Positions 4,891 to 45,341 of a stretch of 45,341 nucleotides of DNA are shown here, in pieces (the first letter of the stretch is position 1; every line of letters begins with the position of its first letter). The stretch comes from Catajapyx aquilonaris. Its lineage: Eukaryota. The notes beneath the pieces are model-generated. The model was not told the origin of the DNA. It worked only from the letters and a program-made list of their open reading frames with translations, and made no database searches. The translations under genes and the position numbers were made by a program. The stretch is taken from positions 1 through 45,341 of the forward strand of contig JYFJ02003183.1 of NCBI GenBank assembly GCA_000934665.2, in the 5' to 3' direction.

Positions 4891-5049
4891 TGTGGAGCCA
4901 CTCTGTAACTTTAGAGCCACCCTGTAGAGGACGCATTGCGACCCACGCTTCTCTGGTTCATTCCGGTCCGTTCCTCCCATCTGGACGACATTTTCTCATC
5001 AACTACTGGCCTGCAAATTTTTCTGTTCCAGTCAGTATTTTAGGTAAGT
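4891..5049 (+). promoter_or_regulatory. Conserved promoter/first-exon block, cassette 2
   Basis: GAGCCACCCTGTAGAGGACGCATTGCGAcCCACGC...CTGGTTCATTCCGGTCCG, with Inr-like TCATTC at 4958-4963 and GTAAGT donor at 5044. The block recurs at 24285 and 42496, and partially at ~9200, ~15860, ~31810 and 37255. Confidence 0.6.
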
Positions 5050-8532: not shown

Positions 8533-8966
8533 TCTGCACTGGATAGATTTTTGAGATGAAAATGTGTGCTATTATGTGGCCCTGTTATGACCTATTGCAA
8601 CACCTGTTGTTGTTTTTTTGGTCCTGTATGAATGAATGAAACTACCCAATCTGCTCTGTTTAGTTTGAGTGTTTATGGCTCTATGCAGTGATGTTTCACA
8701 TAATTTGTTCTCCTGTTGCTTGAGACTCTTTATTGAAATTTTCAAATGTGATTATTTATAATGCTGTGTATCAGGCTGTGGCTAATGGTTATTAAAGATG
8801 GAAATTTCTAACATGTAGTTTTCTTTTGTTACTCGTACATTCAAGATGTAATAACAGTGGAAACCAAAGGGTCAAAGTGTGTGTTTGTAAACCTTCAGGA
8901 GTTAAGCTGGGGCCAAATGACTATCGGATTATGTTATATGGAGTGTTCTCAAAGGGCATCCTTATA

Positions 8967-16589: not shown

Positions 16590-16769
16590 GCATTTACATG
16601 TGAGCGATTTGATTGCGCGATGTCATCACCAGCGGTAACATGGCTGCATAACCAAAGTAACCAGTAATGTTTCGGGCAAAAATCGATTGTTACTTTCACC
16701 TCAAACAATTTGATTCATTGCTCGGCGATAACATTGTGCAATCAAATCACTCACATGTAAACGCACCTT
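16590..16769. mobile_element. Palindromic MITE, possibly PIF/Harbinger-like; related copies at ~38995-39140 and ~41905-42060
   Basis: TTTACATGTGAGCGATTTGAT / ATCAAATCACTCACATGTAAA inverted ends. The core GGGCAAAAATCGATTGTTACTTTC is shared with the 39 kb copy. Confidence 0.6.
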
Positions 16770-17420
16770 AATAATCTTTACATCATTCTACTAAGCAGGT
16801 ATTATCAGGTAATATGGTGTAGTCAAATCAAATTTATCTTTTTCCCTGAGAGAATTTAAACTAATACATAACCTGCATGTTTGCTGGCGGATTGTGCCCG
16901 ATTGCTGTTCCACATGCAGGGTGTTACAACAAAAAAGAAGCAGTGCTTAACAAAAATTATTATTAATATTTATTTGTCTTTTATGGAATATATTACTTCG
17001 ATTGGTTTTGTAGTTGAAACTGGAAAGTAACTGCTGGATTTTTGAACCAGAACAGCCTGAAACTGCAATAGTAGCATTGCAAAATTGTACTTTACCAGCC
17101 TGTGTGTATAAGTCTGGATTTTTCTATCTTACATTGTTGCTACGAAACAGTCATGCACTTCCGCAATGACCACATAAGTGTATTAAACAGCCTCATATTG
17201 TCTGGAGACTGATGTGTATGCCAAGCATGAAATTTTACATTATTGTTTGCCATATATACAGTATCAACAATGGGGCTCTCATTGATATTATAAGCTCATC
17301 AATGCTGCATTGTACTTTCAACTGATACAATAATAGTAAGTAAACTACTCTTGCTCGTTAGAACACTACTGAATGAACATAATTTCTGTAAGCAGTGATT
17401 GTTCATGGCCAGACGACCTT

Positions 17421-17567
17421 GTATCATCAGTTCAAAAATAATTGTCCCAGTCATCCTGATGTGTGTGCTGCCTGCTCGACACACACCATGTAACTTACAT
17501 GGTGTGTGTCGAGCGGCCAGCCCACACGTCAGGATGACTGGGACAGTTCTTTTTGCACTGTTGATAC
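17421..17567. repeat. Palindromic element (~70-bp arms)
   Basis: Symmetric around CATGTAACTTACATG (~17493), e.g. TGTCCCAGTCATCCTGA / TCAGGATGACTGGGACA. Confidence 0.75.
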
Positions 17568-19311: not shown

Positions 19312-20097
19312 AATAGAACACTGTTTTCTCCTATTGTTGTGTGAAGTGAATTTCCATGGAAAAAGGAGGAGTGGAAGGTTCCAGAGGTGCATTTGGCAGA
19401 ATTCCATACCCTATAACTTGGAAAACAAATGTGTTACTTCGCAGTCAGCATGTTAGGCTTGGTCCCCTACAGTATTTTGGTTAACTACTGGGCATTTCAT
19501 TTCATTTGCCAATGTCCGGCGCAACATCTGAAGTTTGTTAGGTTTATAAAAAAACTAGTTGATGATGACTGCAGTGTTGTTGATGCCAACCTGCCTGTCA
19601 ATCTGTCTTATACTGTACTATTTTATTGCAGTGTGGATTAAATCGCTGATAAATGAGTGGGTTCTGTTTTATAAATAGCCAGACTCTACATACACTAGAA
19701 ATAAGTAGCAGGAATAAGTAGCGGCAAGAGTAAGTAGCGGCGCTCTCAAACCTCGACCGGGACCATCCGGCCACGTGACCATGGGACTTGTCATATCTGG
19801 GGGGAAAAAGCAAACAACTTAATTATCTGTTATAACCTTATCCACGCAAAAAATGTAATTTTAGTTTTTATGCAAGTGCAATGAGCTTATGACAGTACCA
19901 GGAGCTTACCACCATTACAGTTGGATGACCTCTCACATTAAATCTCGCTTTATCCTCCACTAACCCGATGTATTTATTCTTGACTATTAAACTACCTGCA
20001 AAACTTTTGGTTTTTATCCCCTGTACTCACATTAAGTGGGGGCATCACGAAGCCCTTTTGTTTACCGGCTCCTCTTGTGGTATGGGCAGCATCTATA

Positions 20098-21507
20098 CAG
20101 GGTGTATCAGAGTCACGGGTCAAGCACGCACGGGGAAAAATCGTAGGTGGCGATAACACCGGTCAGTTTTATAAAACAATTAGAAATAAGGGAGTAATCG
20201 ATTTTTAATTACGGCATTATGGCGTGACGTCATGTCCTTTCCGTTCGAATTGAGAAGCGCGGAAAGATGAGTACGGTGCGTACAGCGGCTCTCTAGCCGT
20301 GCCGGTTGCACTGAACAAGGTGCTCTCATGCTCTCCCGCCTTCCCACGCAAAGCATTGGGCCGGGCTTACACCTCGGTAACCCCTCTTCGTGACCTGTCC
20401 ATGCAACGGTGCACCAAGAAATGGCGGAGGATGTCGAGCACCGATGTCTCTGTACAGGCAGGAATGACAGCAAGCATACCATGTAGATGTCCTCCTCATC
20501 GAAACATCACGAAGAATGTTTCTTGCGGTGGACAGACTGCTGTGTGAGGCCGGTACCGGCTAGTACATTGCGAGCCAGGCAAGATACGTCAGGTACGTAC
20601 AGTAGTACAGTGTGTTGTACACCAGTACTGTAACAGTGCTGTATTGCACAATGCACCTCGGACCGCACGTGCAATGGAGGAAGACGTTCTGGACATGGTA
20701 GCCATGGACCCATCAATCAGCACCCATGAAGTTGGTAAGCGTACTGTCCGTACGCATACCATGACCACAGCAAATCCTGGAACTTGCGTGCGCCCATTCG
20801 CTCGGATGCTGTCATGGATGATCCTTCACACATTGGGATGAAGGCTGTGCACTCTACACCCGACTTCACGGGTGCTGGTCGATGGGTCCATAGCTACCAT
20901 GTCTAGAACGTCTTCCTCCATTGCCATGGTACGTGCGGTCCGAGGTGCATTGTGCGATACAGTACTGTTACAGTACTGGTGTACAACACACTGTACTACT
21001 GTATGTACCTGACGTATCTTGCCTGCCTCGCAATGTACCAGCCGGTACCGGCCTCATGCAGCAGTCTGTCCACTGCAAGAAACATTCGTGATTTTTCGAT
21101 GAGGATGACCTCTCCGCGGTATGCTTGCTGTTATTCCTGCCTGTACAGAGACATCGGTGCTTGACATCCTCCGCCATTTCTCGGTGCACCGTTGCATGGG
21201 CAGGTTGCGAAGAGGGGTTGCCGAGGTCCAAGCCCGGCCCCATGCTTTACGTGGGAAGGTGGGAGAGCATGAGAGTGCCTGGTTCAGTGCAAGCGGCAAG
21301 GCTAGAGAGCTGCTGTACGCACCGTACTCGTCTTTGATGCTTCTCGATTCGAACGGAAAGGACGTGACGTCACACTGTATTGCCTTAATCAAAAATCGAT
21401 TACTCCCTTATTTCTAATTGTTTTATAAAACTGCCCAAGGTTATTGCCACCTACGATTTTTCCCCACCCCCTCGTGCGCGCTTGATCCGTGACTCTGATG
21501 CACCCTG
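20098..21507. mobile_element. 1.4-kb fold-back derivative of a Tc1/mariner transposon
   Basis: TA|CAGGGTG...CACCCTG|TA with ~630-bp inverted arms. Each arm ends in a transposase HTH remnant (PRTAR..MEEDVLDMVAMDPS.ST.EV). Confidence 0.85.
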
Positions 21508-21822
21508 TATACCAGATCAAATTGTAATTTCCAAGCTTCAAAACATAGCAAAGTTCATCTCTGTATGTGTTACTGTTTTTGAATTTTAAAAATACTCACA
21601 ATGACTTTTGACTCAGCCCATGTAACTTCAAAGTCATTGGGTCAGAGATGACCAAAACATGATGAATACAATCTTTATTATGTCTCCTATGATGAGAACA
21701 AGGCAATAGTATATTTTTTTTTCTTCCCAATATCATAAATGTGTGGAGTACAGGGTTATAAGGTGAAGTCAACTAATATTATTTCTTCGCATAATCCCTT
21801 TTTCTCAGATACTTGCTTAAAA

Positions 21823-22866
21823 ATGGCTGTGGCACGAGCACAACACCAAGTCACTGCTCCAAAAGTCCAGCCAATCTTCTTCCGGTGGTCCATCAAGAAC
21901 TACAGCATGCTGAAAATCAAAGATAATATTTCCTCTGTTCCATTTACCTCTGGTGATTCTGTGACTCCTACCTCATGGCGGATTCAAATTTTGGGCCAAG
22001 ATGATAATAGGCAAAGTCTGATGGCATACCTGACGTACCTTCCACGTCACAAAACTGATTTCATAGTAACAGCTAAGTTTACTCTCAGCATTGGGAACTT
22101 TTTCTCCTATTATGTGTATTCAGGGCAATTTGAATTCTCTGCAGATCGTTTGCGCTGCGGAGGTAATCTCATATCCTTCTCAGACTTGGAAAAATGTTCA
22201 AAGAAACTACATGTCCTTCCAAGGGATACCCTCACCATTACTTGCAAAGGAAAGATTATGTGTGGGTTTCGCAGTGGGCCCCAAGTAGTTCCTATTGACA
22301 TTGATATTGTTGCTCCTGGATTATCCACTGACATGAAGCATCTCTTGAAGTCCGGCAGAGATAGCGATGTGAAGTTGATGGCAGGAAGATCTTCATTTCC
22401 TGTTCATAAGCTCATTTTGATTGCTCGAAGTCCCGTGTTTGCTGCCATGTTTAACCATGACACCCTGGAGAATGAGACAGGAGAAGTAGTTATCAAGGAT
22501 GTAAAACCAAAGGTGTTGGAGAGTCTGATTTACTTCCTGTACACTGACGAATCGCCCCCAGATCTGTCCGGAATGGCCACGGAGCTTGCTGCAGCTGCAC
22601 ATAAGTACATGCTTCCTCGTCTCCAGTCAATGTGTGAGAAGCACCTTGCAAATGCTCTCACAGTAGATAATGTTATTGACAGGTTGGGTGTTTGCATTAT
22701 TTACAACTACTCCAACAAACTGGAGAAGGCTTGCTTGCAATTTGCCAAGTCAAACTTGAAGGAGGTGCAAGAAAGCAAGTCATGGAAAGCAGGTCTCCCT
22801 GTGGAAATCGTCCCTCCTCTTTTTGAGTTCTGCAGTGTGACATGTGACATACCACCTTCGTGTTGA
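21823..22866 (+). CDS. MATH-BTB protein, copy G4, 347 aa, clade B (divergent MATH)
   Basis: IFFRWSIKNY, WRIQI, LMAYLTY, LPRDTLTITC, then VHKLILIARSPVFAAMF, FLYTD and AAHKYMLPRL. Acceptor ends at 21808; ATG at 21823 by alignment to G6/G7. Confidence 0.93.
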   Translation: MAVARAQHQVTAPKVQPIFFRWSIKNYSMLKIKDNISSVPFTSGDSVTPTSWRIQILGQDDNRQSLMAYLTYLPRHKTDFIVTAKFTLSIGNFFSYYVYSGQFEFSADRLRCGGNLISFSDLEKCSKKLHVLPRDTLTITCKGKIMCGFRSGPQVVPIDIDIVAPGLSTDMKHLLKSGRDSDVKLMAGRSSFPVHKLILIARSPVFAAMFNHDTLENETGEVVIKDVKPKVLESLIYFLYTDESPPDLSGMATELAAAAHKYMLPRLQSMCEKHLANALTVDNVIDRLGVCIIYNYSNKLEKACLQFAKSNLKEVQESKSWKAGLPVEIVPPLFEFCSVTCDIPPSC

Positions 22867-23858: not shown

Positions 23859-24284
23859 GTAATTGTGCTAATTCAAAACAGTAAGACTTATTTTTCAGTC
23901 ACGAACAACTGCTGCCTGAACAACTATTTACAGATTTTCCATGCAATATGTGGAGACGAGTCATACTCCCATACAAACTCTTTTTTAAAAAGCTTTCAAC
24001 AGGTGTAATATTTTGACTCACATTCACTAGTACTAATCCAATTTTTTACACGATTATACCACGAGTTTCAGAATAATTATTAACTTAATTAATATCTGGC
24101 AGACACTTGTTTCCATCGTCAGGACCCGTCGCGCGCCGAATACCTTTTAATGTACCGCCTGAGTTAGATGCACTGTTAATAAGCTCAATTTAATGGGCTT
24201 TAAATGTTATACATAACACACACCGAGTTTGACTTGGTGAGGCGAGCGTACGTTCAAATTTAATCCTTTGCGAATGACAGCAAA

Positions 24285-24441
24285 TGTGAGCCACCCTGTA
24301 CAGGGCTCATTGCGATCCACGCCTCATTGGTTCATTCCGGTCCGTTCCTCCCATCCAGACGACATTTTGTTTTATCAACTGAACTGAAAACGTCTCTCGC
24401 TTGAGCACCTCTGGCTTTTCAGACAAATTTGATGGGTAAGT
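24285..24441 (+). promoter_or_regulatory. Conserved promoter/first-exon block, cassette 5, directly upstream of the MEP-1-like gene
   Basis: Close match to 4914-5049 (GAGCCACCCTGTA...GGTTCATTCCGGTCCGTTCCTCCCATC.GACGACATTTT), with GTAAGT donor at 24436. Confidence 0.65.
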
Positions 24442-24639
24442 CCAGAATAATTGGACCTAATTAAGGGCAGTCTGCATGCTTAACTTTATGTGGTGGGCAA
24501 CACGTACTTAGGCTGTACAATAAGCCATTATAGTATTGGGAAAATAATGATTTGTCTTGCTCATCACACTATGCATATTATGCAAGTAGGCTATGCAGGG
24601 ATAAAGGCATAATGAGTTGTAATTTACCTCTAACTTCAG

Positions 24640-27600
24640 ATGCACCACATGGCTGCACCTAGCAGAGAGCTCGAACCAGCTGTGGTCCTATCGGAAGATG
24701 ATGTGTCCATAGGTGAACCAGGTACGTGTCGAATCAAGTGCACCAAAGAAACAGAAAAAAAAACCTTACAGAAATATTGCTCCATTGCAGGTGAGCCGCA
24801 ATTGAATGGCGAGATGATCAGCTCTTCTGATGGTGACCCAGTTGACGGGACTTCCGGGACACAAAAGCTCGATAGTGAAGACGGAGCTGAAGAAGTTGGT
24901 ACTAAGCGCACATGGTTAAGTTCCCCACTAACTAAATCTGACAATAGTGATTGTGAGTTGGACTCCAGTCCAGATGCAGGTGGTAATGGTGTCTCAGCTG
25001 GCAGTGGGGAAGGTGAACAGACAGTTAACAAGGACACTGATGAGAAGTATATTCACGACGATGATGATTGGAGTGTAGTTATGTCGAGTGGTGATGAGGG
25101 AGAGCAGGAGACCTCAGACAATGAGGTTGAGGAAGTGAAAGATGAAGACGCGGAGGACCATGATCCTGACGACATCAGTTCTGACAGCGGTGGAGAACAA
25201 GATGCAAGCAATGGAACTGGCAGCCAGCTATGGGAAGGTAGTCAGGCTGTCATATTGGCTTTGGCCAGGTTAAGTGGAGAGACTATGCGTGACTCAGGGG
25301 TAGTTGCAGATGAAGGTGCAGAATCTGACAGTGGTGCTGGGGGTGATGATCTAGAACCTATGCCACTTATAGACAGTGACAAAGAGGACAATGAAACAGA
25401 AGAAGCCACTGAAGATGTTGAGAAGGGATCTCTAAGTCGAAAGGAAGGTGCACAGGACAGTTCTGTAAATGTTGCCACATCTCGTAAGACTCGTAGTGAG
25501 AAGCTGACTGGAGAGCGGCAGGAAGAAAGTGATGATGATATAATAGAAGAGAAACTTGTGGAAAAGAACGAGCCTATGAAGCACAGTTCAGTTACCCGAA
25601 AGCAAGATGATGATCCTGATGTCCAGGCTGTAGATCCTGTGGATCCTCTAGCAGACCCACGAGAAGTTCCTGATGTCCAGGCTCCTGTGGATCCTCTAGC
25701 AGACCCTGTAGTTATAGTAGATACCAATTCAATTTTGTCTGGAAAAGGTCCAGTTCCAGTGAACCTTGGAATGTCAACCACATCTACAACCACTTTGCCA
25801 CCAACTTCACTGCCATCACAGTCAATCTGTAGGATACGAAACATCCCAATCCACACTGGATCTGGCTTGACTGCAGGAGGGACCAACCAGCGACAGTCAT
25901 CATCAGCAACGTCCATGTCTGTAAAAGTTACTCACGAGTGGCCAGGTCTTTCAGACGATATGTTTGTAGTTGAATCACCTAGTTTCATAGTTCCATACGT
26001 TTATGAAAAGCCACCTAAAGAGAGTGTGAAAGAGTTTTGTAGCAGATTGGAGAAGAGTGGGAAGGGTGAAGAGGAAAAAAAGGGTGAAAGTAGTCAGGCA
26101 GAAAAGGACAAAGCGGAGGATGACAAAGTGACTGATAAGGAAGAACGTAAGAACAAGTTGCTGTATCCTCATGACAACTTCTTCGACAGTTCACTGGGCA
26201 AGTTCTTTATTCAGACTGGAATGAACTTGGTGCAGGAATATGTCCAGACAGACTTGCTGCGGGCTGTAAAGCGTAAGGCAGAGCGTGAAAGGGAGAAGAC
26301 CTCTGCTGCCACCCAACATGCAATCTCATCCCTCTTGCGTAACCTTGAAGATTCAAAAGAGAACAATGAGCCTTTCCACTTTGAAACCAAAAAGTGCGAA
26401 TTTTGTAACTTTAAAACTGAGTCGACTCTTGTCATGGCACGGCACCTGGAGACCCCACACATGCGCTTGTACACATACCGTTGCAATTTCTGTCCCTTTG
26501 AAACTCGCTCTCCACATGACATATTGTTTCACATGGAAGCAGAACACAATGTTAGAGGACATTTGGAAAGAGCCCCAGCTTTTCATCAATGTGTAAACTG
26601 CTCTTTTGAGGACAATTCAAAGATTAAGCTGAGCCGACATATACTGTCATGTATGAAGAAGTTCCGTCATGACTGGACTCAGGAGCCAATTACTTCTCAC
26701 AGGGAGCTGCCAGCCAAGATTTATCACGTTTCACAGGGACATCCCGCAACTCTAGGGCCTCGATTTGCCCCAATTAAGCCCACACCTGCAACAATGGCCC
26801 ACCCACTGATGTCCAAGCAGGCCCCAGCCCCTGTTCGTTTCACTCCGGCACCAACACTCATTCCTCTTCGAGGACGTCCACCTGGGCCTGCCACACTGGC
26901 TAGCAAGCTTGGGGTAGATGCCCGTACCCTTCCCTCCAGGTCACTGAGCTCAGCCAGTCACATCCGACCAGGTCAGTGGGCATAACCATGGCAGTGAGAT
27001 TTTGAATGTATATGTTTGAAGGACATGACAATTTTCTTTCCGCAGGAATGATTTACCGACCTCCATGGAGCCAGGTGCATGTCCCTTCATCGTTTGCATT
27101 TAAAAACAACTCTATTTACCCGGTAAGTAATTCTTGTTCTGGGTGCACTTTTCCAATACCAAAGTGTGATTTCTGGGGTTCTTTTAGATTGTGACATTCA
27201 GTAGTTACATGTGCAGTTGTAGCCACTTACCCATGCACTTCTGCATGTGGTTCAGTGGTTGCGATGTCAGTCTTAGTCTCTCACTGCTGTCTGTTATCTC
27301 TTTCGCATGTTAAACTTGTAGGTGGTAAATCGCCCAGGTCATATGGTACCGGTGATGACTGGTGGACCGATCAACGTGCCTCGCCTAGCGTTAATGCCCT
27401 CTGGAGTCGGCGGCTCAGGCGGAGGTGGGGCCCATGTCCCCATGGCCCTCATCCCCAACCTCACTTCGGGAGCCATATCCATCACCATACAAGTGAGAGC
27501 CATGACATAGTAGTTGTGGGTGGGGCGAGGGTCTTGGGGGCTATTTAGAACTGAGCGTGACCTAAATGACAAGAAAACAAAACCCATGACCTTTCAGAGT

Positions 27601-28619
27601 GCATTGAACAGGACCATATTGCCCAAGGCACCACAGCAGCCCAGCATCTCCATCACACCCTTGCCGAGGCAGACAGCAGCAGCGCCTGTGTCACTGAGTT
27701 CCATCGCACAGGGAAGTTCTCCCAAGGCAACTACACCCAGCAGTTCAGCACCCAGGCCCAAGACTACGTTGGTCATCTGTGAAATATGTGATGGATATAT
27801 CAAGGTAAGTTCTGGCCCCATAATCGGTGATTTGTACATTAGGATTTCAGACCACATATCTGATCTCCATCAGTCAAAATGATGAAAAAATGATATACTA
27901 TACTTAGAAGATGTTTAACTGTTTTTCACAGGGCTTGGAGCAACTGCGCACCCATATGCAGTGGGTACACAAAGTAAAGATTCACCCGAAGATGTTATAC
28001 AAACGGCCCCCTCTTAACTGCCAGAAGTGTCAGTACCGCTACTTCACGGACCAAGGTCTGGAGCGCCACTTGCTGGGCTCACATGGGCTGGTCACCTCAA
28101 GTATGCAGGAGGCTGCCAACAAAGAGCAGGATGGTGGACGATGTCCAGTGTGCAGAAAGGTAAGAGATGACACTTAACTTTTCTGAGGAGAGGGACATTC
28201 ATAAATGCTTGTTACAGGAGTATCAGAGGAAATTGCTAAATCATGTGGCCAAAGACCACAATCTGACACTGAAGCCAGCATACTTGTCCTACAAGTGCAC
28301 TCTCTGCACTGCTACATTTGGCATGTACAAGCAATTTGAGTACCACGTCTACTCAACTCATAACGCCTTAGCAAAGCCTGGTGATAAGAAGGGAGGAGAT
28401 GTGAAGTTCATGCCTACTTCCTCATCCGCACAACATTTGCTATCACAATCGCAATCCCTACTAAAACCGCTTAAAATCACAGATGAGATCACTATCATTC
28501 CTCAACCTGTGAAGTCAAGTCCAACTCCATCCTCAACAGCATCAACTGCTATCACCGGTGAATCAAGCCGTAGCACCAGCCTGGTACAGGGTCAACAAGA
28601 AGTTGAAGTGTCAGGTTAG
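24640..28619 (+). CDS. MEP-1: MEP-1-like C2H2 zinc-finger protein (Mi-2/NuRD/MEC partner family), ~1,138 aa, six coding exons
   Basis: Exons 24640-26971, 27046-27122, 27322-27492, 27598-27804, 27932-28159 and 28218-28619, all GT-AG and phase-compatible. Family motifs FVVESPSFIVPYVYEKPP, GMNLVQEYVQTDLL, HMEAEHNVRG.LER.PAFHQC, VICEICDGYIK, HMQWVHKVKIHPKM, FTDQGLERHLLGSHGLVTSSMQ, LSYKCT.CTATFGMYKQFE. The 3' end is uncertain (possible donor at 28615). Confidence 0.9.
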
Positions 28620-29985: not shown

Positions 29986-30259
29986 TGACAAAACGTCTTC
30001 ACCTGTATATGGAGTGGAACCCAAATTGTCGTAATTATAGTAAGTGTACCTGTGCAACAGAGCTCAATACATGAAAATTACAGATGTAATCTTCTTGGGC
30101 TCATTTTAATTTTCTTATGGTTGAACCTATGGTTGAACTTAAGGTAGATTCTACATATGAAAGATAATGACAGCATTATTATTTCTGTGCAGTGGAAGTA
30201 ATGCATTTGTTTCAGAAAGTAATAATTTTTTTGTTCCTGCTTTCCACAGGTTGGTAAAA

Positions 30260-30788
30260 ATGAATACCAGACAGCAACTCTTCATAACAGCAGATGTTAA
30301 GCCATTTTGTTTTCAATGGACCAGTGACAGCTACAAGCCTCGTGGATTAGATAAAGAAGAGTGAATACATCTTCTCCGTTCACCATCAGTGCATTAGAGT
30401 CAACACAATGGGAGCTGGAGCTTCATCCTAATGGTTACACAGATGAGGATGATGGTCGTATTTCTTATTACATTTGTTGCTGTCTGATGTGGATGATTTC
30501 GAATTCCCTACCACATTTACCCTCACCATTAGAGTACCAATAACAAAAACACTTGGGGTGTTACATAGTTCCGCATATTTTCCAAGCAAAATGCGACTTG
30601 GGGCCTGTCTCCGTTCATTAATATCAAAGTCTTGGAAGATCGAGCATCTGAACTTCTTCCAAGTGGTACCCTGACCTTGATTAGCACAGGGGATGTCATG
30701 TTGGATCTGGATTGTAAAAAGACACCTGAAGCTCATGGCCCTGGATTGTCTGAGGATGCAAAGTGCACTGGAGTCACATGTTAGCAGG
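30260..30788 (+). pseudogene. Decayed MATH-BTB copy G5 (clade A), BTB domain deleted
   Basis: MNTRQQLFITADVKPFCFQW, PFTISALESTQWELELHPNG and SDVDDFEFPTTFTLTI lie in different frames with stops. Homology ends at ESHV, and paralogous 3'UTR sequence resumes at ~30930. Confidence 0.9.
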
Positions 30789-31475
30789 GCAGGGCAGCTG
30801 ACCATTTTCACCTCCTGTTCACTCCACGTCTATCCTATGTTTGTTTTTTAGTTTTTTTTTTACTGGGAGCAGTTCACTTGCTGTTTTTTTGGTACTTTGT
30901 AATATGTAACTGTATAACTTCTGTTCATTGGATTGGGTGTTGATGTGTTTCACTTAAATCGTTCTCCGCTGACTTGAGGCTCATAAGGAGTGACCTTTAT
31001 TTGTCCTTCTGATTTTAATCGTATTTTTCTCCTTTTTTGTTATGTACTACCCAATTTGGTGTGTTTAGACCTTCAGTGAGGAAGTAATAGTCTGCTTTGG
31101 TAAATTGTCATTCAGATTTTTTATGTGGAACTTTCTCAAAGGACATAACTTTACTCCATGCTGCACTACATAATGTGGTGTGAGAGAGTTTTGTAATGCA
31201 TATGTTCACGGCGTATATCAGTACTTTTTTTAATTTTGTATTTATTTGGTGGCATTTTTTCTGTTATTTTCCAGGCGTGCATATTTCTGTTGGAATTTAT
31301 TCCAAATGCACTTAGCCTTCACGCAACTATTCAGTATTTGGATCTACATTCGTAGAAGAAAAGAGTTGAAGTTGCTTGGAATTTATGATTTTTGTATTCA
31401 TTTTTATTTTTGAGAGTGTGTTTTCAAACTTTGTCTAGTCAGTGGACTTTTAAATTTCCACAATCTGTACACCCC

Positions 31476-33434: not shown

Positions 33435-33594
33435 GTTTTGATGGTGGGAGGAAATTGGAGAGCCCCGAGAAAATGCACGCGAACACGGAGAAAACTCATC
33501 GAAACTCTATCCACATAAGTATTCTCTGTCCGATCCGGGGATCGAACTCAGGACCTCAGAGGTGGAATGCTGTGGCAATAACCACTAGACCACC
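33435..33594 (-). mobile_element. tRNA-derived SINE fragment (V-domain-like core)
   Basis: Minus strand shows A box TGGTCTAGTGG and B box GAGTTCGATCC, followed by a TTCTCCGTGTTCGCGTG...TTTCCTCCCAC core. Confidence 0.7.
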
Positions 33595-34063
33595 TTGTAT
33601 ACATTACATTATTACATTATAACCCAGAAGTATAAAATATTGTGGATTCCAATCTAAAGTTGGGGGAGTTCATGGACCTTGCAATGAGCCGTCACATCTG
33701 GGCAAAAAAAATCAACCAATCTAATTCTCTGTTACATCATATTATATCCGCACAAAAAATTTGAGTTTAACTTTTTGCCCAAGTGAGATTTTTTATGAAA
33801 AGTACTAGGAGCTCAGTACCACTACAGTTGGATGACATATATCTTGCATATTTTCGCATGGTTGTTTTATCCTTGGGTATATCATCAATGGCTACATGTC
33901 CGAAGCTATTAACAATATGGCATACATACCGCCACAGGCAAAGTGGCTGGCGTTATAGGCTTGTGGCCTAAGCGAGCAAAGCGAGGGTTTTTCTAGTACA
34001 TTCAATAATTTAACACTCTGGCTTTCTTCAAATAAATCCATCTTTCCAGGTACATGCGTGAAA

Positions 34064-35086
34064 ATGACTGAACCACAAGGTCAGCACAATGTCACATCTC
34101 CAGAAGTGCAGCCAATCTTCTTCCAGTGGTCCATCAAGAAGTACAGCTTTTTTAAAACTCGAGCTAAGATTAGCTCTGGTCCGTTTACCATTGGTGATTC
34201 TATGACTCCCACCACATGGATGATTGATATCTTCGGCCAAGATGGTACTAGGCAGTATCTGATGGCATACCTGACTTACCTTCCACTTCACAAAACTGCA
34301 GAAGATTTCCCAATAAAAGCCAGATTTACTCTCAGCATTCAGAGCGAATTGGAGAAAGTTTTTTCTTTGGATTCAGAGCTGGTCGAATTTTCTGCAGGTA
34401 ATTTGACCCATGGAGGTAATGTTATAACCTTCACAGACTTGGAAGCTAATGAAGCAGCCCTGCTTCCAAATGATACCCTCACTGTTACTTGCAAAGGAGA
34501 GATTATGTGTGGGTTTCGCAGTGAGCCCCAAGAGGTTCCTATTATTGAGATTGCTGCTCCTGTATTATCCACTGACATGAAGCATCTCTTGAAATCCGGC
34601 AGAGGTAGCGATGTGAAGTTGATGGCAGAAGAATCTGCATTTCCTGTTCACAAGGCCATTTTGATTGCTCGTAGCCCTGTGTTTGCGGCCATGTTTGAAC
34701 ATGACACCCTGGAGAATGAGACAGGAGAAGTAGTTATCAAGGATGTGAAGCCACAAGTGCTGGAGAATCTGATCTACTTCCTCTACACTGACGAGGCACC
34801 CCAAGATCTCCCGGAAATAGCCACGGAGCTTGCTGCAGCTGCACAGAAGTACATGCTTCCTCGCCTCCAGTCAATGTGTGAGAATCGCCTTGCAAATTCT
34901 CTCACAGTGGACAACGTTATTGACGTGATTGGTGCATGCCTGTTCTGCAACTACTCAAACAAACTGAAGAAGACTTGCTTGCGGTTTGCCAAGTCACACT
35001 TGAAGGAGGTGCAAGAAAGCGAGTCCTGGAAAGCAGGTGCCCCTGGGGAAGTCGTCAAAACTCTTTTTGAGTTCTGCCATGTGTAA
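34064..35086 (+). CDS. MATH-BTB protein, copy G6, 340 aa, clade B
   Basis: Intact paralog of G4/G7 with VHKAILIARSPVFAAMF and FLYTD. Acceptor ends at 34049. Confidence 0.93.
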   Translation: MTEPQGQHNVTSPEVQPIFFQWSIKKYSFFKTRAKISSGPFTIGDSMTPTTWMIDIFGQDGTRQYLMAYLTYLPLHKTAEDFPIKARFTLSIQSELEKVFSLDSELVEFSAGNLTHGGNVITFTDLEANEAALLPNDTLTVTCKGEIMCGFRSEPQEVPIIEIAAPVLSTDMKHLLKSGRGSDVKLMAEESAFPVHKAILIARSPVFAAMFEHDTLENETGEVVIKDVKPQVLENLIYFLYTDEAPQDLPEIATELAAAAQKYMLPRLQSMCENRLANSLTVDNVIDVIGACLFCNYSNKLKKTCLRFAKSHLKEVQESESWKAGAPGEVVKTLFEFCHV

Positions 35087-35772: not shown

Positions 35773-36939
35773 AGTTATTGTACTGATCCAAAATAGTGTG
35801 AATTATTTTTCAGTCATAAACAACTACTTACAAATACAGCTACAGCAGCAAACAACTGCGGAGGTGGGTAAGATGCGGCAGCATGCGGTAAGGAACATTT
35901 TAGGTTCAATAGTTTTAATTGGTATGCTCTCTACTCTCTCTTCATCCATAAGTAATAATACGAACTTGGTCATTGTTATTGTTCAACAGGTATAATATTT
36001 TGACTCATATAGTTACTAGTACCCCATCCAATATATTTTTAACATTATTATGCCACGACGAGTTTCAGAATCAAGATTAATGAAAATTTGGCAGATATAT
36101 TACTACACTTAATTTCCATCAGGACCTGTTGCTTAGCTAATCTCATCGGGAAGTGATGGCAGCATGCAGGATTGCAAGCAGTGATGGCACCACCAACTTT
36201 GCAAGTGGCTCTCCAAGAAGCAGTGGCAGTACCCGAACTTAAAGCGGCTCTCCAAGAAGAGCTGGAAGTAGCAATTCAACCACAGGTGCAAAAGAATGTT
36301 AATGTGTATAATTATGCTGCAGACTAATACTAACACAATATATTGCTGACGACCAAAAACGGCAAAAAGGGGACAATCATCAGCCCAGCAGATTAGCAGC
36401 CAGCAGGCACCACTGCCGCCGCCGCCTTCGCACCCTCCTGCCATGTAGATTGTAGGTAATCTGTAATGATGAGGTATTTCCTTCGAAATGATAAATTATT
36501 GTTCATGATATACCGTAAGTATTTGATTCCTTCAGCGAAAATGGCATGCAAGCAAGTGTGATAGCGATCAAAGTAATGTGTATGAGGGCTATGACCATGT
36601 GATTTATTGAAACTGCGTTGGGTACGGAGAGTATTCATTCAAAGTACAAGGAATGCCGTATGTTCAAGAGTGAGTGTCGTTATTCTTTTGCAGGTTCGGA
36701 CTGTGAATTGTTCATGTGTAGACTGTATTCTGCAGACTATGCTGCGAATGAGATGAATGCAAACTTACGTTTCCAGTTATTCCAGTTATTACAACAATTT
36801 TAACAAAACCATACCATAATTACCTGCATGTACCTTTTAAAACTCCTATAAGCACATGTATAGATTTACGTTCTTCATTCCTGACGATGCGTTTCTGCGA
36901 GAATAATTGACTCATTCAGAGCGACACAGCCAAGTTTTC

Positions 36940-37230
36940 AACAAAGTTGCAGAAACCGCGGACTCTCATTTTCTGAAGGAAGGAGTGATCCCATGAGATG
37001 GTAAATTTGCCCTTGCACTTTGAATGTAGGCATGAAGCCCCCTTAACTCTAACAACGTTGGCCCCAAAAGATGTCATCTGGAAGGCCGAATTGTAATTTC
37101 TGATGGCCTTCAGGAAATGTTTTGAATCAGGTGATGTGCCTATAAGAGGAGCATTTTAAGTAGCTGTGGAGGCTCAGCCAGGAGAGGAAGGCTAACCTTT
37201 CCAATGGAGCAACAGATCGTCTGTGGTCTG
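36940..37230 (-). mobile_element. Helitron RepHel N-terminal coding remnant (frameshifted)
   Basis: Manual translation across two frameshifts gives ICCSIGKVSLPLLAEPPQLLKMLL / GTSPDSKHFLKAIRNYNSAFQMTSFGA / GFMPTFKVQGQIYHLMGSLLPSENESPRFLQL, motifs typical of animal Helitron RepHel. Not shown in the ORF track. Confidence 0.8.
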
Positions 37231-37254
37231 GAGACGATTGTCTCATTCGTATCG

Positions 37255-37660
37255 CTGGTTCATACCGGTGATTCTGTTGGCAATAATATTGTTCCTCATG
37301 AAGTTGTGTGAGGCAGAGAGAGAGAGATACAGAGCAATAATTTATTCTAATTTACAAGAAAGAGATAAAGCCAGATTGGATTTATTATAAATGTTATTTG
37401 TGCGCCATCCAATGAGCGATTGTGTGGGGAATTCCCTGTGATAAGTTTTTTTTTCCATCTTCTTTTTTCTTTTTTCTTCTTGCTGCATGAATATGAGTGT
37501 TGAGGATTGCACAATATAGACGAAACAGAAAAGACGTACCCGTCCAGGCCACCAAGCTTGCAGGAGAAAGAGGTGACAAAATTCTCGGCTCATTATTGTC
37601 TGCTGGGCAGCCAACATCTTATCCAGTTAAAGCAGGTTAAAGTCACTGTTTTGGGTAAGT
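37255..37660 (+). promoter_or_regulatory. Promoter remnant/first exon of cassette 7
   Basis: CTGGTTCATACCGGT, TTTATTCTAATTTACA and TGCGCCATCCAATG are shared with 42549-42886. GTAAGT donor at 37655 is followed by the same intron start as at 5044 and 24436. Confidence 0.55.
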
Positions 37661-38151
37661 GGAGAATATAAGTTCAGAGAATGAAGGGCAATATCGGTAT
37701 GCTTAATTTTGTCTGGTGGGTGGGCATCAAGCTCGTAGACTACAACTTACTATCCAGTATTTACCATCATGGTGTAGGTCAATAATGTGTGCGCGCAAGT
37801 AATCCATGTTTTATTTCGTCCCATTTTTGGTGTCAACTTACTGTACTGTACCACTTCGTTATTAACCCAGATATGCCCGGAAAAGTTTTTGTTGAATTTT
37901 TGAACTTTCTTTGTTTCTATTAGTTCATATTAGTTCCTGTGCAAAACACAAAAATCGAGATAAAACATTTTTCTGAACTCTTATTGTTTGCGAGAAAATG
38001 GCCATTCCCTATAATTACGGGATGCTAGGAAAATGTAACCTTATAGTATGGTAATTGTGTAGACTGGTGTAGATATGTAGATTGACCCAATCATAATAAT
38101 TAGTGAGTGGGCGGAGACGGATATTATAGGCAACTCTTCTGTTTCCTGCAG

Positions 38152-38731
38152 TGAACCTACAGCAAACTTCAAGAAGATTATGCCAAAGTTATGGCAGCAT
38201 TATTGTTATGGTGTGCCCGAGTGGGGCGAGTTGCCTGATAGTCCTTTGGCCAACTCCGCCATTCTCAAACCAAAAACCCCATCTGCCCTGCCCAAGTCAA
38301 CCACAGGCGGAGGGGGGCAAGACAGAGGGGCCCTCTCACAGCAGGCACATCACTCAGGAGGAGGCTGGCGCCAAAATCCCCTGGACCAAATTCCAATATG
38401 GCAGGTGTGCTGATGTGTTAACACATCAGCACACCTGCCATCCTGAAATGTGGTTTCTCCAACCAGGGACCATCATTGCCTGCAGCAGTCGTGATGCAGA
38501 CAGAGCCTCCAAATCATATCAAACAGGCCACCGTGGACAAATCAAAGGAGGTAAGGGCCAAGGACAAGAACCCCAACAAAGAGGAGGTGGTGAAGAAGAG
38601 TGAGGAACATCTGCTGGACAACAAAAAACCTGAGGAATCCCTCATCACCTGCTTCCGGGAGCTCACGGTTCCTGAGAGGCTCATACCAGATGTGCTCACT
38701 TTCATTAGGAGCAAGACACCTGGTAAGAGTG
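38152..38731 (+). CDS. eIF4G2: eIF4G2/DAP5/NAT1-like gene fragment (MIF4G-MA3 linker and MA3 start), two exons
   Basis: Exons 38152-38404 and 38467-38722/38731 joined by a 62-nt phase-0 GT-AG intron. Peptide ..NFKKI..PLANSAILKPKTP..EPP..IKQATVDK..KDKNPNKEEVVKK..FRELTVPERLIPDVL resembles eIF4G2 (PRFSKK..SLRPA..PSKEELLK..VREMRAPKHFLPEML) from recall. The fragment may be non-functional. Confidence 0.6.
38398..38441. repeat. Perfect 44-bp palindrome
   Basis: ATGGCAGGTGTGCTGATGTGTT|AACACATCAGCACACCTGCCAT is self-complementary with no spacer. Confidence 0.95.
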
Positions 38732-40037
38732 GTTAGTGCAGCCAAATATTGTTGCTCAGTTATTTTTACAAGCATTTCAGTTGTTTGCTGTGTGTACAGT
38801 ACACAGTTGGGGCTGCCACAATAAGATAAGTGCTGTGTTGTACTTTCAACTAACACAGTAATAGTCTCTGAATTCTTCTTGCTTGTTAGATTGCAACTGA
38901 ATTCAGTACACAGGCATTCTCTAAGTAATGTTTATTTATTACTGGACCAGCCTGTACGTTGATCCAAATCCTCAATTGTTTTAAAAATGCATTAAGTCGT
39001 GTTTACATGTGAGCGATTTGATCAGCTATGTCATCTCAGAGCGATGAATCCAATTGTCTGGGGCAAAAATCGATTGTTACTTTCGCCCCAAACACTTGGA
39101 TTCATCGCCCGGCAAATTGATGCTCACATATAAACACATTTATATGTTCATTACATGGCTTTTAATTAAATCCCATTTTCTAATCACATGGAGGTTCAAA
39201 TATATGATCAACATAATATATGAGTGACCTATCAAAATGCCATGTGAAATTGCCGAAGTTAACTTGCGTAATTTTGTCTTAGAAAATCTCGATAGAGGTT
39301 GCAATAAGAATTTGCAATGGTGACTTTATATGGAAAAACCTGGGTAACTAGCCTATATCCACTTGTACTTAAGTTTGCAGACACTTGAAACGACTATTAG
39401 CCTACAATTTGACACTCTCTGGTCAAAACATGTGCTGCATAATTATGTACTTAATTATGCCTGTGATGCATCGTTTCTGTGCATACAATTTCATTACACT
39501 TTCATTAAAGTGTGTAGTAACAAGGTCATGAAATATATGACTCCCTTGCTCAAGGTAACCCTAGAATTTTCCAATCATGAGGGTCAGTACAAGTACCTTA
39601 GCATGCAGTGAAGCAAATTCAGAAAAATGCTCGGTATAGCCATAATTATATCCTCAGATATTTTTTCATAATTTTGCGCAAGTGCAATTCACTTTTGACA
39701 GCGTCTGGGAGCTGAATATGATGGTACTGTTAAACAACCTGATGAAATGAATGACAACTTTATCTTGTATTAACCCGATGTAATTTATTATTGACTAAAC
39801 CACCCACTGTGGTGCCCTCAGGAAATCCTTTGTTGTGGTTGCATGACTTGTTGACCAAGTTTTGTCTTTAATGCATGATCTTGCTGAAAAAAAGGGATAC
39901 TTCGGCAGTAAGGTACTTGGTTGATTCATGTAGGATTGCATTATATTTGCACCTGCATTTCACTTGTAGATCCTTTAAGCAGGAATTAAGTGTCGTCCTC
40001 ACCATATACTGCCTTCTTTTCAGAAGCATGTGTGAAA

Positions 40038-41075
40038 ATGGCTGAGCCACTTGGACAGCACATTGTCACTACTTCAGAAGTGCAGCCAATTTTCTTCCAG
40101 TGGTCTATCCAGAACTACATCTTTTTCAAAACTAGAGCTAAGATTAGCTCTGATCCATTCACCACTGGTGATTCTGTGACTCCTACGAGTCCTACCACAT
40201 GGATGATTGAAATTATTGGCCAAAGTAGTAATAGGCAGAGCCTTGGGGCAAACCTGACTTACCTTCCACGTCGCAAACCTGCAGATGATTTCCCAATAAA
40301 AGCCAGATTTACTCTCAGGATTGAGAGCGAATTAAAGAAAGTTTTCGCTTGGGATTCAGGGCTGGTTGAGTTTTCTGCAGATAAATTGACTCATGGCGGT
40401 GATCTTATAACCTTCACAGACTTGGAAGCTAATGAAGCAGCCCTGCTTCCAAATGATACCCTCACCATTGCTTGCAAAGGAAAGATTATGTGTGGATTTC
40501 GCAGTGGGCCCCAAGAGGCTCCTATTGACATTGAGATTGATGGTCCTGGATTATCCACCGACATTAAGAATCTCTTCAAGTCTAGCATAGGTAGCGATAT
40601 GAAGTTGATGGCAGGAGAATTTGCGATTCCTGTTCACAAGGTCATTTTGATTGCTCGGAGCCCTCCGTTTGAAGCCATGTTTGAAGAAGACACACCAGAG
40701 AATAATGCAAGTGCAGTAGTTATCATCAAGGATGTGAAGCCAGAGGTACTGGAAAGTCTGATTTACTTCTTGTACACTGATGAACCACCCCCAGCTCTGC
40801 CCAAAATGACCTTGGAGCTTGCTGCAGCTGCACAAAGGTATATGCTTCCCCGCCTCCAGTTGATGTGTGAGAAGCACCTTGCAAATACTCTCACCGTAGA
40901 CAATGTTATTGACACGTTGGGTGCTTGCCTTACCTGCAACTACTCTAACAAACTGAAGGAGGCCTGCTTGCAGTTTGCCAAGTCAAACTTGAATGAGGTA
41001 AAAGGAAGCGAGTCCTGGAAAGCAGGCCCCGCTGTGGAAGTTGTCACTGCTCTTTTTGAGTTCTGTACTGTGTAG
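40038..41075 (+). CDS. MATH-BTB protein, copy G7, 345 aa, clade B
   Basis: Intact paralog of G4/G6. Acceptor ends at 40023; ATG at 40038 by alignment. Confidence 0.92.
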   Translation: MAEPLGQHIVTTSEVQPIFFQWSIQNYIFFKTRAKISSDPFTTGDSVTPTSPTTWMIEIIGQSSNRQSLGANLTYLPRRKPADDFPIKARFTLRIESELKKVFAWDSGLVEFSADKLTHGGDLITFTDLEANEAALLPNDTLTIACKGKIMCGFRSGPQEAPIDIEIDGPGLSTDIKNLFKSSIGSDMKLMAGEFAIPVHKVILIARSPPFEAMFEEDTPENNASAVVIIKDVKPEVLESLIYFLYTDEPPPALPKMTLELAAAAQRYMLPRLQLMCEKHLANTLTVDNVIDTLGACLTCNYSNKLKEACLQFAKSNLNEVKGSESWKAGPAVEVVTALFEFCTV

Positions 41076-41806: not shown

Positions 41807-42495
41807 GTTACTGAACTGATCCAAAACAGTAGGCTACTACTTAGTTGTTTGTCTGTCATAATAAACAACTAGTTACCTATGCGGATACAGCAGCAAACAC
41901 ATGCGACTAGTGATTTTAAGAGCGATGACATCGCTGAGTAACCGGAGTAACCAATATTGTTTGAGGCGAAAGAACGCTCTTCCTCAAGCAATACTGGTCA
42001 CTTGGGTTACTGAGCAATGTGATAGCTAGTCAATAAATCACTCACGTGTAAACACGGCTATATAAGGTGGCTAAGATGCTAAGGGACATTCTAAGTGCCG
42101 GAGATTAAAATTGCATATATGTGCTCCCTCGTCCATGTATAAACTGGATATAGTGTCATACATTGATCATCAATCAATAATCTTTTTTTTTGTGGACTAT
42201 AATACTATCACCACATCCTGTTTGTAACGTTATTGTGTCGCATGAGTTTCAGAATCGAGATTAAATGAAAGTCTGGCAGAATAAGCTCCAATTTCTAGGC
42301 AATTTCTTTTGAGCAGGACTACCTGTCGGCGCTGTCGCCTAATCTTGAAACCTGTCGAGGAGTTATAGATACACCGGATACACCAGTGGAAACCTCATTT
42401 AGCGAGCGTCAAATATTTATACGTAATACCACTGCCCTCCGATTGTGAAGGCGAGGCGAAAGTTCGCAAAAATATCCCGTCACTAAGGACCATAA

Positions 42496-42886
42496 TGTGA
42501 GCCACCCTGTAGAGGACGCATTCTGATCCACGCCTCACTCGTAGTCACTGGTTCATTCCGGTCCGTCCTTCATCCGCATTCCGTCAGTCCAGGTGTTCCC
42601 AACTGTGATTCTGTTGGCACCGGTGCAGTGATGCAACGTGATTATATTTATTCTAATTTACAGTAAGTAAAATAATCACGGATTTGGATCACACTTAAAA
42701 TGAATGTCATTCTGCGCCATCCAATGGGAATATTTTCAGTTGATTGCAGGGATGACTCAAAGCGTCAAAGGCCTCTGCCGCGTCACTCACTTTCCCTTCA
42801 AGCAGGCTGAAAAGTGGACAAAGAGGAAACAATCCGACTGGCCACGCAACTTATCCTAGATTCAGTCAGTGTTTTATTGGGTAAGT
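42496..42886 (+). promoter_or_regulatory. Promoter/first-exon block of an eighth cassette (cargo not in window)
   Basis: TGTGAGCCACCCTGTAGAGGACGCATTCTGATCCACGC...CTGGTTCATTCCGGTCCG, with GTAAGT donor at 42881. Confidence 0.6.
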
Positions 42887-44035
42887 GCTTAAGAAGAAAA
42901 AAACTGGATGATAAACTCCAGTCTGCTCACTTACAACTTGTCTGGTGTGCACATGCTAGGAGTTACGGTGCAGCACGATGAGCAGTACAAAGCATGGTGT
43001 ACATCAATAGTGTGGTTGTAGTGCTACCACATACCACATGGCCTGCTTATTGCTGCGGTTTCAGAATACAACTTTTCATCCATCTATAGATCATAATTGG
43101 ACCCACTTCCACTTGCCCGACCATCAAAACAGTATGGGCGTAATAAGCTTTCCAGGTGCTGTTGAGAAGGTGCATTAATTAATTTAATGCAAAAGTAGGG
43201 TGTACCTGAGCAAATGGGCAATACTCTGTACAAAAGGTGTGGGGGTTTTGGAGCATGTAGGGGTTTTCTTGAAGATGTAGTGTGACTCTGAGAATGTTTT
43301 GCTTATAAACACATGGCCTGTAGCATATGGTCAGGAATTACATATGATCATGGAGTGGCAGAGTTCCAGGGGAAAAATATACGCCCGGTATTAAATGTGA
43401 TGACACAAGCAATGAAAGTTAATGAAATAAGCAGGCAAGAGGTCTGTCGCAATATGTATGTGCAGTGATATATACTGGTGGTAGAGCGGTTCATTGATGT
43501 ACATTTTGCTCATCATGAGCTTGGATAGTGTCTGTGGCCTGAAAACGAAGATGTTGACACTGTAGATATTGGAGGGGTTGCAAGAGTGTTGCCTCAGCAT
43601 ATGGCAGACAGACAAAGGAACTCGGTTCACTTACGAAGTCAGTTTCATGGAGTCAGTATTGAATGAAATATACATTGCTTGACCACAGTGATGTTACAAA
43701 ATCACAATTTTTGAGTTGTACAGTGTTGGTCATAAATTGAGGCATATTGCTAGCGACAATTTCAGAAGCGGGAGAAGAAGGAATCGAAGATAAATATTTT
43801 TTAGCTTATTTATTTATTTATTTTATTACCCCGTAACAGGGCAGAGCCCTTTTGGGGGGACACTTTTGACATCACAATGTACGTACAGACGCTCAAAAAT
43901 ACATCCGCTTCCCGACATTATCAAAAAAATTGAATAAGCGGTATAGCACCTCGTTTGGCAAGTATTCAAAAAGTAGGTGGGTTTTATCGGGCGGGAAAAC
44001 ATTCAGATCCGAGAGCACCAATTGGTCCTGTTTAA

Positions 44036-44115: not shown

Positions 44116-44424
44116 GAGAAACGGTGACAGATGAAGTAGAAGTGGGTTCATCTGCTGTGCGCTGGCAGTGCCAAGAATGTCATCCATAAGGACCAATGCG
44201 ATCGTTGAGGTTTTGCTAATGTTGGAATAAAACGGAGGTGAACAACATGAGAGAGGCAGTTTCAATGAAAGTACCTAGTCTTGCCATAAATTCTGTCCCA
44301 CATATAAATAGGGTTGTAACTATGCAGATACCTGCAACTCCCCAATTTTTATTTCCGGGCATGATAAGCAGGTCCTTAGGTACTGATAAAAAGTCACATC
44401 ATGTCAGGGAGTCGAAGGGTGAAC

Positions 44425-45075
44425 ATGGAATTGGGCCTCAAAGGAAGCCGTGTGGCAGTGATTGCACTGCACAAGTGCAGGAAATCACCAAGTGAGATTT
44501 TCAAGCTCCGGAAGCTGCTGCAAATATCGAAGAAATTTGTTCATCGTACCATCAAAAGATACAATCAACTGTCCTCTCTGGATGACAGACCAAGAGCTGG
44601 TCGTCCGCGTGTATCAAGAACGCCAGCAGCTGTTAAAGCAGTTGGCGAGAGAATTTGCAGAAATCCTCTCCGCAAACAGAAGATAATGGCAAGAGAGATG
44701 AAGATTCCGACAAGAACCATGTCTCGCATCATCAAAGAAGACCTGAGGTTTGGGGCTTACCGGAGAAGTACAGGACACCGACTTACAGCAGCTTTACGGA
44801 ACATCAGGGCAACCAGATCGAAAAGGTTGTTGGAGCAGCACGCAAACGGAGGGCACCGCAAAATCCTGTTTTCAGACAAGAAAATTTTTACGATAGAGGA
44901 AAAATTAAATCGTCAAAATGACGGAGTGTATGCACACAACTCCCAAGAAGCTGCTAAGAAGATTTCCAAGGTGGAGAGAGGTCATCATCCAGCATCAGTG
45001 ATGGTTTGGTGGGGAGTGTCCTACGATGGAGTCACAAAACTGCATTTTTGTGAAAAAGGAGTGAAAACTAAGGCT
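44425..45075 (+). mobile_element. Truncated Tc1/mariner transposase, maT (DD37D)/Bmmar1-like
   Basis: RVAVIALHK, GRPRVSRT, RNPLRKQKIMAREMKI, GGHRKILFSD, RGHHPASVMVWWGVSY, FCEKGVKT. Homology stops before the second catalytic Asp. Confidence 0.9.
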
Positions 45076-45341
45076 TGGGTGCAGTTTAGAGCCGCAAAAA
45101 TCTTGCAGGTTTCTATACATTTTCTGAATCTACTCGATGAGCTGAGTCTAATGACACTATTCCTTGTGTGCGGAAATGTGTGGTTCAAGAGTAATTGAAT
45201 TTTGAAATTGCATGTAATAACAATGAATAAAATGAAAGTAAACAAGTGTTCCTTTGTTGAGACTGTTCACTCCCATTGTTGCGTCAGGTGATTCTCCGTG
45301 GAAACGTGCTGTGAGGGATGCTGAATGATGTAAATAAACGG

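Follow-up and report, generated by a model that had tools for sequence, protein, structure and literature searches.

A probable eIF4G2 gene fragment within the predicted leader intron of a MATH-BTB gene of Catajapyx aquilonaris

Young chimeric genes that arose by exon shuffling are known from Drosophila, jingwei and sphinx among them. We describe here a locus in Catajapyx aquilonaris (contig JYFJ02003183.1 of assembly GCA_000934665.2, positions 1 to 45,341; this whole stretch of 45,341 nucleotides is referred to as the window) that resembles such partial duplicates in that a few exons with their splice sites lie in the putative transcription unit of another gene, in the sense orientation and in a compatible phase; the exons resemble eIF4G2 (DAP5/NAT1/p97), and the other gene, G7, encodes a MATH-BTB protein. 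The two situations differ in that the jingwei- and sphinx-type cases have a demonstrated chimeric transcript and selection, whereas the piece in the window is known from sequence alone. In eIF4G2 itself, the counterpart of the second exon-like block (block 2 below) is a conserved segment that leads into the MA3 domain and includes its beginning, but the piece corresponds to only ~85-170 of ~870 residues, with no credible MIF4G domain, complete MA3 domain or W2 domain in the window; it is a fragment of eIF4G2 and not a member gene. SPOP-type MATH-BTB proteins, which are substrate adaptors of CUL3, have been described as forming lineage-specific tandem arrays in nematodes and grasses (Stogios et al. 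2005, PMC1257465; PMC4091423), and the window is similar in that G7 and at least five paralogues stand in tandem with a MATH plus BTB (plus weak BACK) layout. The window genes are unlike those arrays in being very divergent (the five closest proteins found to G7, all SPOP-like and 370-486 amino acids long, are 29-34% identical to it, with 46-64% of the query aligned), and in apparently consisting of a single coding exon behind a leader cassette that is also used by a neighboring zinc-finger gene. None of the papers listed in a narrow literature search on lineage-specific tandem MATH-BTB expansion and eIF4G2, which supports no wider claim, mentions eIF4G2; a wheat MATH-BTB protein is described as interacting with the translation-initiation machinery (PMC6883508), a curiosity that provides no evidence concerning the window.

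We consider it probable that the piece duplicates part of eIF4G2, is young and without function, lies in the predicted leader intron of G7 and is usually spliced out. Specifically, DNA-level copying would have brought a ~0.6 kilobase piece of the organism's own eIF4G2 (DAP5/NAT1-type) gene, made up of a pair of exons with their short intervening intron and flanking splice signals, into the MATH-BTB array, where it would have come to rest in the sense orientation within the putative intron of the G7 5′ untranslated region, between its leader exon and its coding exon, with dispersed repeats downstream of it in the same putative intron. Splicing would then most likely remove the fragment as part of the intron, with at most a minority of G7 transcripts keeping it. 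The features on which this depends are the following.

37254-37654, plus strand: leader cassette 7, putatively the G7 promoter region together with a non-coding 5′ exon, with a donor GT at 37655-56
38152-38404, plus strand: block 1, exon-like, 84 codons, with an acceptor AG at 38150-51, an ATG at 38180 and a donor GT at 38405-06, phase 0
38467-38722, plus strand: block 2, exon-like, 85 codons plus 1 base, with an acceptor AG at 38465-66, a donor GTAAGA at 38723 and an alternative donor GTTAGT at 38732
39990-41075, plus strand: the reading frame of G7, a MATH-BTB gene
40024-41075, plus strand: the G7 coding exon, with an acceptor AG at 40022-23, a 14-nucleotide leader, an ATG at 40038 and a stop codon at 41073-75, encoding 345 amino acids

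An initial annotation of this DNA had proposed that the two blocks are eIF4G2-derived exons that can be joined in frame to G7, and the positions and frames it used (38180, 38722, 38731, 40024, 37655) were confirmed on the sequence. The similarity to eIF4G2 is carried by block 2. A phmmer search with block 2 against 1.84 billion representatives returned exactly one protein at E ≤ 0.001 (P0003, E 2.3e-5), which itself matches named insect eIF4G2 proteins (7 matches, E 1e-38 to 2e-21) and has a Pfam MA3 match exactly at the cut-off. With an alignment of seven sequences (A1, comprising five full-length eIF4G2 proteins, P0003 and P0011), hhalign gives a probability of 97.4% and E 9.8e-12 for block 2, and an hmmsearch of the window in all six frames reports positions 38479-38718 with an i-E value of 9.3e-15, at profile positions 468 to 548-552. 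All seven queries of the eIF4G2 set match the block 2 site by tblastn (E 4e-11 to 1.4e-6); a shuffle test of tblastn at the default word size, in which 81 of 200 shuffles reach the score, uses a setting that overlooks the real block 2 match. The identity to insect eIF4G2 proteins is 34-42%, and the span covered is the linker before MA3 together with approximately the first 45 of the 113 MA3 profile positions. The aligned stretch contains motifs such as IKQA..DK.K, KDK.P.KEEV.KK and.P.R, the window is identical at 16 of its 26 columns that are invariant in A1 (counted manually), and the similarity ends within three codons of the GTAAGA donor. On the strength of these alignments, block 2 is derived from eIF4G2.

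The proposal fares less well for block 1, whose resemblance to eIF4G2 is weak. Its hhalign comparison is not significant (E 0.15-0.17), and its best blastp match (P0007, E 0.015) is of low complexity and not colinear. Against a sub-profile of the poorly conserved eIF4G2 linker, its score is reached by 26 of 2000 shuffles, and the match falls on a '...PL..P..LKP..P' motif directly before the region of eIF4G2 that corresponds to block 2. Nonetheless, block 1 likely shares the origin of block 2, because it has exon-like base composition, lies adjacent to it and is separated from it by a GT-AG gap that preserves the frame. Other searches returned little: Pfam reports no family, MA3 included, for either block at E ≤ 1 or E ≤ 10, and for block 2 a PDB sequence search finds no match at E ≤ 10, a word-indexed homologue search against longer proteins scored none of 52 candidates, and the protein atlas offers no usable match. 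In a metagenome scan with block 2, one of 282 candidate stretches passed (L001), and this was treated as spurious, with no eIF4G2 gene at its locus; the other strand of L001 has a reading frame of apparent cytochrome-P450 type that looks fungal by eye.

The DNA of the window is eukaryotic, with a guanine-plus-cytosine (GC) content of ~40% overall. The GC contents of block 1 (0.538) and block 2 (0.512) are well above those of the sequence upstream (0.371) and downstream (0.362), and the edges of this GC island coincide with the predicted AG and GT dinucleotides. The acceptor of block 1 is preceded by a strong pyrimidine tract, and the 62-nucleotide gap between the blocks (38405-38466) begins with GT, ends with AG and keeps the frame. 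The lengths of the open reading frames (ORFs) of the blocks are in themselves unremarkable and not above chance, because 9 of the 3229 stop-to-stop frames outside genes in the window reach at least 104 codons. Two features do stand above chance: block 2 is homologous to eIF4G2, and the GC island has sharp edges at predicted splice sites.

Because both the homology and the GC island end at exon boundaries (AG/GT), they point to a copy of genomic rather than processed DNA. The alternative is that this is a processed (retro-)pseudogene of eIF4G2 that was later broken up. In its favor, two weak matches on the plus strand (35849-35941, to a MIF4G motif, and 38940-39011) rank second and third in the profile search of the window, are colinear with block 2 and have scores that are each reached by 1 of 300 mononucleotide shuffles. 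The repeats that are needed to evaluate these are listed below.

38781-38956, plus strand: repeat X, dispersed, holding an acceptor-like AG at 38888-89, with a second copy at 17243-17423
38980-39160, no strand assigned: element Y, palindromic and resembling a miniature inverted-repeat transposable element (MITE), containing inverted repeat I2, with a second copy at 16593-16785 that matches in both orientations
39672-39797, plus strand: repeat Z, dispersed, 68% identical to 19866-19986

The match at 38940-39011 contains an in-frame TAA and spans the end of repeat X, a spacer of 20-odd nucleotides and the start of element Y; since a single relic cannot run in frame through two independent repeats, we reject it as an eIF4G2 relic. 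The match at 35849-35941 is doubtful and is likewise rejected, sitting as it does in 3′ flanking sequence that the G5, G6 and G7 units have in common. No other credible eIF4G2 part is found by tblastn and profile search in the 45 kilobases on either strand: nothing in the window matches MIF4G (HEAT-1) significantly (the top candidate, at 35849-35941, has ~1-5 bits and E 0.66), the block 2 alignment covers only the start of MA3, with homology ending at the donor at 38723, and neither profile search nor tblastn gives a match past position 552, where W2 would lie, except the composite of repeats. As the next-best profile matches fall in repeated DNA, the eIF4G2-derived DNA is confined to ~38152-38730. 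A retrocopy is further at odds with the termination of homology at a GT donor, since copied cDNA would extend further into MA3, and with the 62-nucleotide GT-AG gap that splits the blocks; no poly(A) tract was noted on reading through 38723-39000. We find this origin barely credible. The locus shows that apparent relics, weak but colinear in their matches, can be assembled from repeats, and we note that both matches pass the shuffle test while lying in repeated DNA, such that mononucleotide shuffles are too lenient a null here.

The repeats also bear on the proposal that an acceptor ending at 38889 marks the native next eIF4G2 exon, which did not hold up: the acceptor lies inside repeat X, in which we find no similarity to eIF4G2. 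The two copies of repeat X are 66% identical over 186 nucleotides and 76% identical over a 72-nucleotide core. Element Y has terminal inverted repeats of the type GTGTTTACATGTGAGCGAT, and its copies are upstream of G7 and of G5. A stretch related to repeat Z, at 33691-33836, matches 19790-19929.

The copy looks young, because its frames are open, its GC content is exon-like, its splice consensus sequences are intact and 16 of the 26 invariant eIF4G2 residues are kept; with a copy of this youth, the open frames do not require selection as an explanation. It cannot form any eIF4G2 domain, because it encodes only disordered linker and ~45 of 113 MA3 positions, and a lack of function seems the most likely condition. 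As to how it arrived, capture by a transposable element (transduplication), in place of segmental duplication or break repair, is a variant that we regard as quite unlikely. Repeats (X, Y and Z) abound around the piece, which is short (~0.6 kilobases) and includes intron sequence, as do the short pieces in known capture events. However, neither terminal inverted repeats nor target-site duplications can be convincingly identified around the GC island, the only candidate arms (I4 and I5) are 21-22 nucleotides long with 76-77% complementarity, and the window contains no second copy of the fragment.

The position of the fragment relative to G7 depends on the simplest gene model, in which the leader exon ends at 37654, an intron extends from 37655 to 40023 and the coding exon begins at 40024; the eIF4G2 piece and repeats X, Y and Z would all be inside this intron, with the repeats taking up what the piece leaves of it. 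The model is plausible, in agreement with the initial annotation, as GGTAAG is invariant in all five copies of the leader cassette, one of these copies abuts the exon with the start codon of the zinc-finger gene, and a pyrimidine tract and AG are present 12-40 nucleotides 5′ of the ATG in all six MATH-BTB genes. The five cassette copies (~4890-5260, 9430-9780, 24260-24660, 37230-37760 and 42470-43060) have a mean column identity of 43%, and blastn matches among them are weak.

Within this gene model an in-frame fusion is available. Splicing of 38180-38404 to 38467-38722 and on to 40024-41075 gives 510 codons in which the sole stop is the terminal one of G7 itself, and use of the alternative donor (38467-38731), which like the first is in phase 1, gives 513 codons, again with a terminal stop only; the predicted fusion of ~510 amino acids is thus borne out as arithmetic. 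It could represent a true chimeric gene with a selected protein, in which the leader, both blocks and the G7 exon share one mRNA that is translated from the ATG at 38180 into 510 or 513 amino acids, with an eIF4G2 linker and partial MA3 as the N-terminus of a CUL3-adaptor-type MATH-BTB body. The single open frame, the AG and GT at every junction, the sense orientation inside the putative G7 intron and the A at position -3 of the ATG are consistent with such a gene. Weighing on the other side, the match in frame to G7 has a chance prior of about 1 in 3, the N-terminal extension would be without a complete domain, G7 retains its own ATG 14 nucleotides past the acceptor in the same layout as in G5 and G6, and the donor of block 1 is buried in a hairpin that is described below. 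Moreover, neither MA3 nor MIF4G is present among the precomputed Pfam domains of any of the five G7 relatives, which were found in a search restricted to proteins of 189-604 amino acids. A chimeric gene is therefore unproven, less likely than a relic and in our estimation very unlikely.

The donor of block 1 coincides with a near-perfect palindrome, which did not figure in the initial annotation.

38385-38454, no strand assigned: palindrome of 70 nucleotides, its 35-nucleotide arms directly adjoining, with positions 38400-38439 as a perfect 20+20 core

The palindrome encloses the block 1 donor GT, which is within the perfect 20 base pair stem, and most of the 62-nucleotide gap; it may have arisen by inverted duplication or may be a feature of the parental intron. 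The 20+20 core is unique in the window, with 2 matches in 0 of 100 shuffles, and the predicted RNA fold of 38375-38470 has a free energy of -55.7 kcal/mol (z -9.98) that is equalled by none of 200 shuffles. No Rfam family matches the palindrome or any other part of the window, and a reading of the 62-nucleotide gap as a mirtron or pre-miRNA is rejected, the stem being centered at 38419/20 and pairing exon with intron sequence, with only ~15 base pairs of it (by reading) wholly within the gap. A hairpin of such stability is expected to hinder the use of an enclosed donor. By this reasoning it would disfavor removal of the gap, and with it the smooth splicing needed for the fusion, and argues against the fusion, because the frame from the ATG at 38180 stops after 77 codons if the gap is left unspliced.

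The same structure raises the prospect that the blocks act as exonized 5′-leader exons, forming a regulatory upstream ORF (uORF) or a poison-exon switch in which inclusion of block 1, alone or together with block 2 or a repeat-borne exon starting at 38890, would provide a uORF of 77 to 166 codons and lower the translation of G7 or the stability of its mRNA. The ORFs exist: retention of the gap gives the 77-codon frame, and splicing of blocks 1 and 2 to 38890 introduces a stop after 163 (donor 38722) or 166 (donor 38731) codons, close to the uORF of ~165 amino acids that had been predicted for this join. Splice signals are also present, and the hairpin could make the choice of splicing conditional. 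Yet the acceptor at 38890 belongs to a dispersed repeat and not to an eIF4G2 exon, and any intronic ORF presents such a picture by default, so that a switch of this type seems to us unlikely. A more elaborate form, a newborn functional module in which G7 transcripts beginning at the shared leader cassette would carry both eIF4G2-derived exons and the hairpin would decide between the 510-residue chimeric protein and a uORF of 77 to 166 codons that silences G7, is a long shot.

Several observations do weigh against the interpretation of the fragment as a relic that is spliced out. Both blocks are fully open and are in frame with each other across the GT-AG gap and with G7, and their splice consensus sequences are good, with strong pyrimidine tracts and GTAAGA. 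Because sense exons of such quality in introns are often recognized by the splicing machinery, some inclusion of the blocks in G7 transcripts is plausible. The leader-to-G7 intron, for its part, is a prediction from conservation. If the blocks were spliced into G7 mRNA, the locus would capture very young exon shuffling before decay, in which a segment of a translation factor is linked to a ubiquitin-ligase adaptor whose gene family is expanding fast, with an RNA hairpin on the critical splice site; the likelier case is that they are not, and the locus then contains an ordinary relic of a gene fragment. For annotation, the locus serves as a warning against calling either a fusion or an eIF4G2 paralogue here.

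G7 belongs to a tandem array of MATH-BTB genes in the window, all of which are on the plus strand with a single coding exon per gene. The other members, and a large gene located among them, are these.

2371-3393, plus strand: G1, a MATH-BTB gene
~7416-8360, plus strand: G2, a MATH-BTB gene
14034-15095, plus strand: G3, a MATH-BTB gene
21739-22866, plus strand: G5, a MATH-BTB gene
~30156-30789, plus strand: a truncated MATH-BTB copy, an array member
33959-35086, plus strand: G6, a MATH-BTB gene
24640-28619: a large C2H2 zinc-finger gene inside the MATH-BTB array, nearest in the protein atlas to MEP-1-like clusters that are mostly from arthropods

G5 and G6 are paralogues of G7 with 73-78% nucleotide identity. 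The BTB domain is present in G7 (PF00651, E 2.5e-20, 73.2 bits against a cut-off of 20.5), whereas its MATH match (PF22486, MATH_2, E 9.6e-6, 26.3 bits) falls short of the curated threshold of 32 and its Pfam BACK_BPM_SPOP match is weak; PF22486 is carried by four of the five G7 homologues found. The G7 and G6 proteins have no exact match in the protein collection examined. In G7 (40027-40044) as well as G6 (34053-34070), a five-codon mini-ORF (ATG...TGA) begins 11 nucleotides 5′ of the main start codon and overlaps with it; by alignment, its upstream ATG is absent from G5. The G2 frame (7416-8617) has 314 codons and ends earlier than those of G1 and G3, with a C-terminal part that reads differently, and the copy at 30156-30789, in the stretch 30156-30829, consists of the MATH half only; G2 and the truncated copy are probably decayed members of the array.

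The cassette copy at 24260 has a donor GT at 24437, and ~200 nucleotides further on there is an acceptor directly 5′ of the ATG of the zinc-finger gene at 24640. From these predicted splice sites, this cassette copy (24260-24440) appears to supply the MEP-1-like zinc-finger gene with its 5′ leader, and unrelated genes of the array appear to share duplicated promoter/leader modules.

Transposable-element sequences are also found elsewhere in the window. ARAGORN identifies no tRNA gene anywhere in it; a segment upstream of G6 (33480-33600, minus strand) resembles by eye a tRNA-derived short interspersed element (SINE). A few hundred bases upstream of G5, the segments 20180-20547 and 21054-21417 contain frames on opposite strands that encode near-identical peptides, which indicates an inverted repeat pair, and their sequences are probably the arms of a transposable element. 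Near the right end of the window is one further element.

44380-45198: a Tc1/mariner-type transposase remnant, with HTH_32 and HTH_29 matches and 272 open codons

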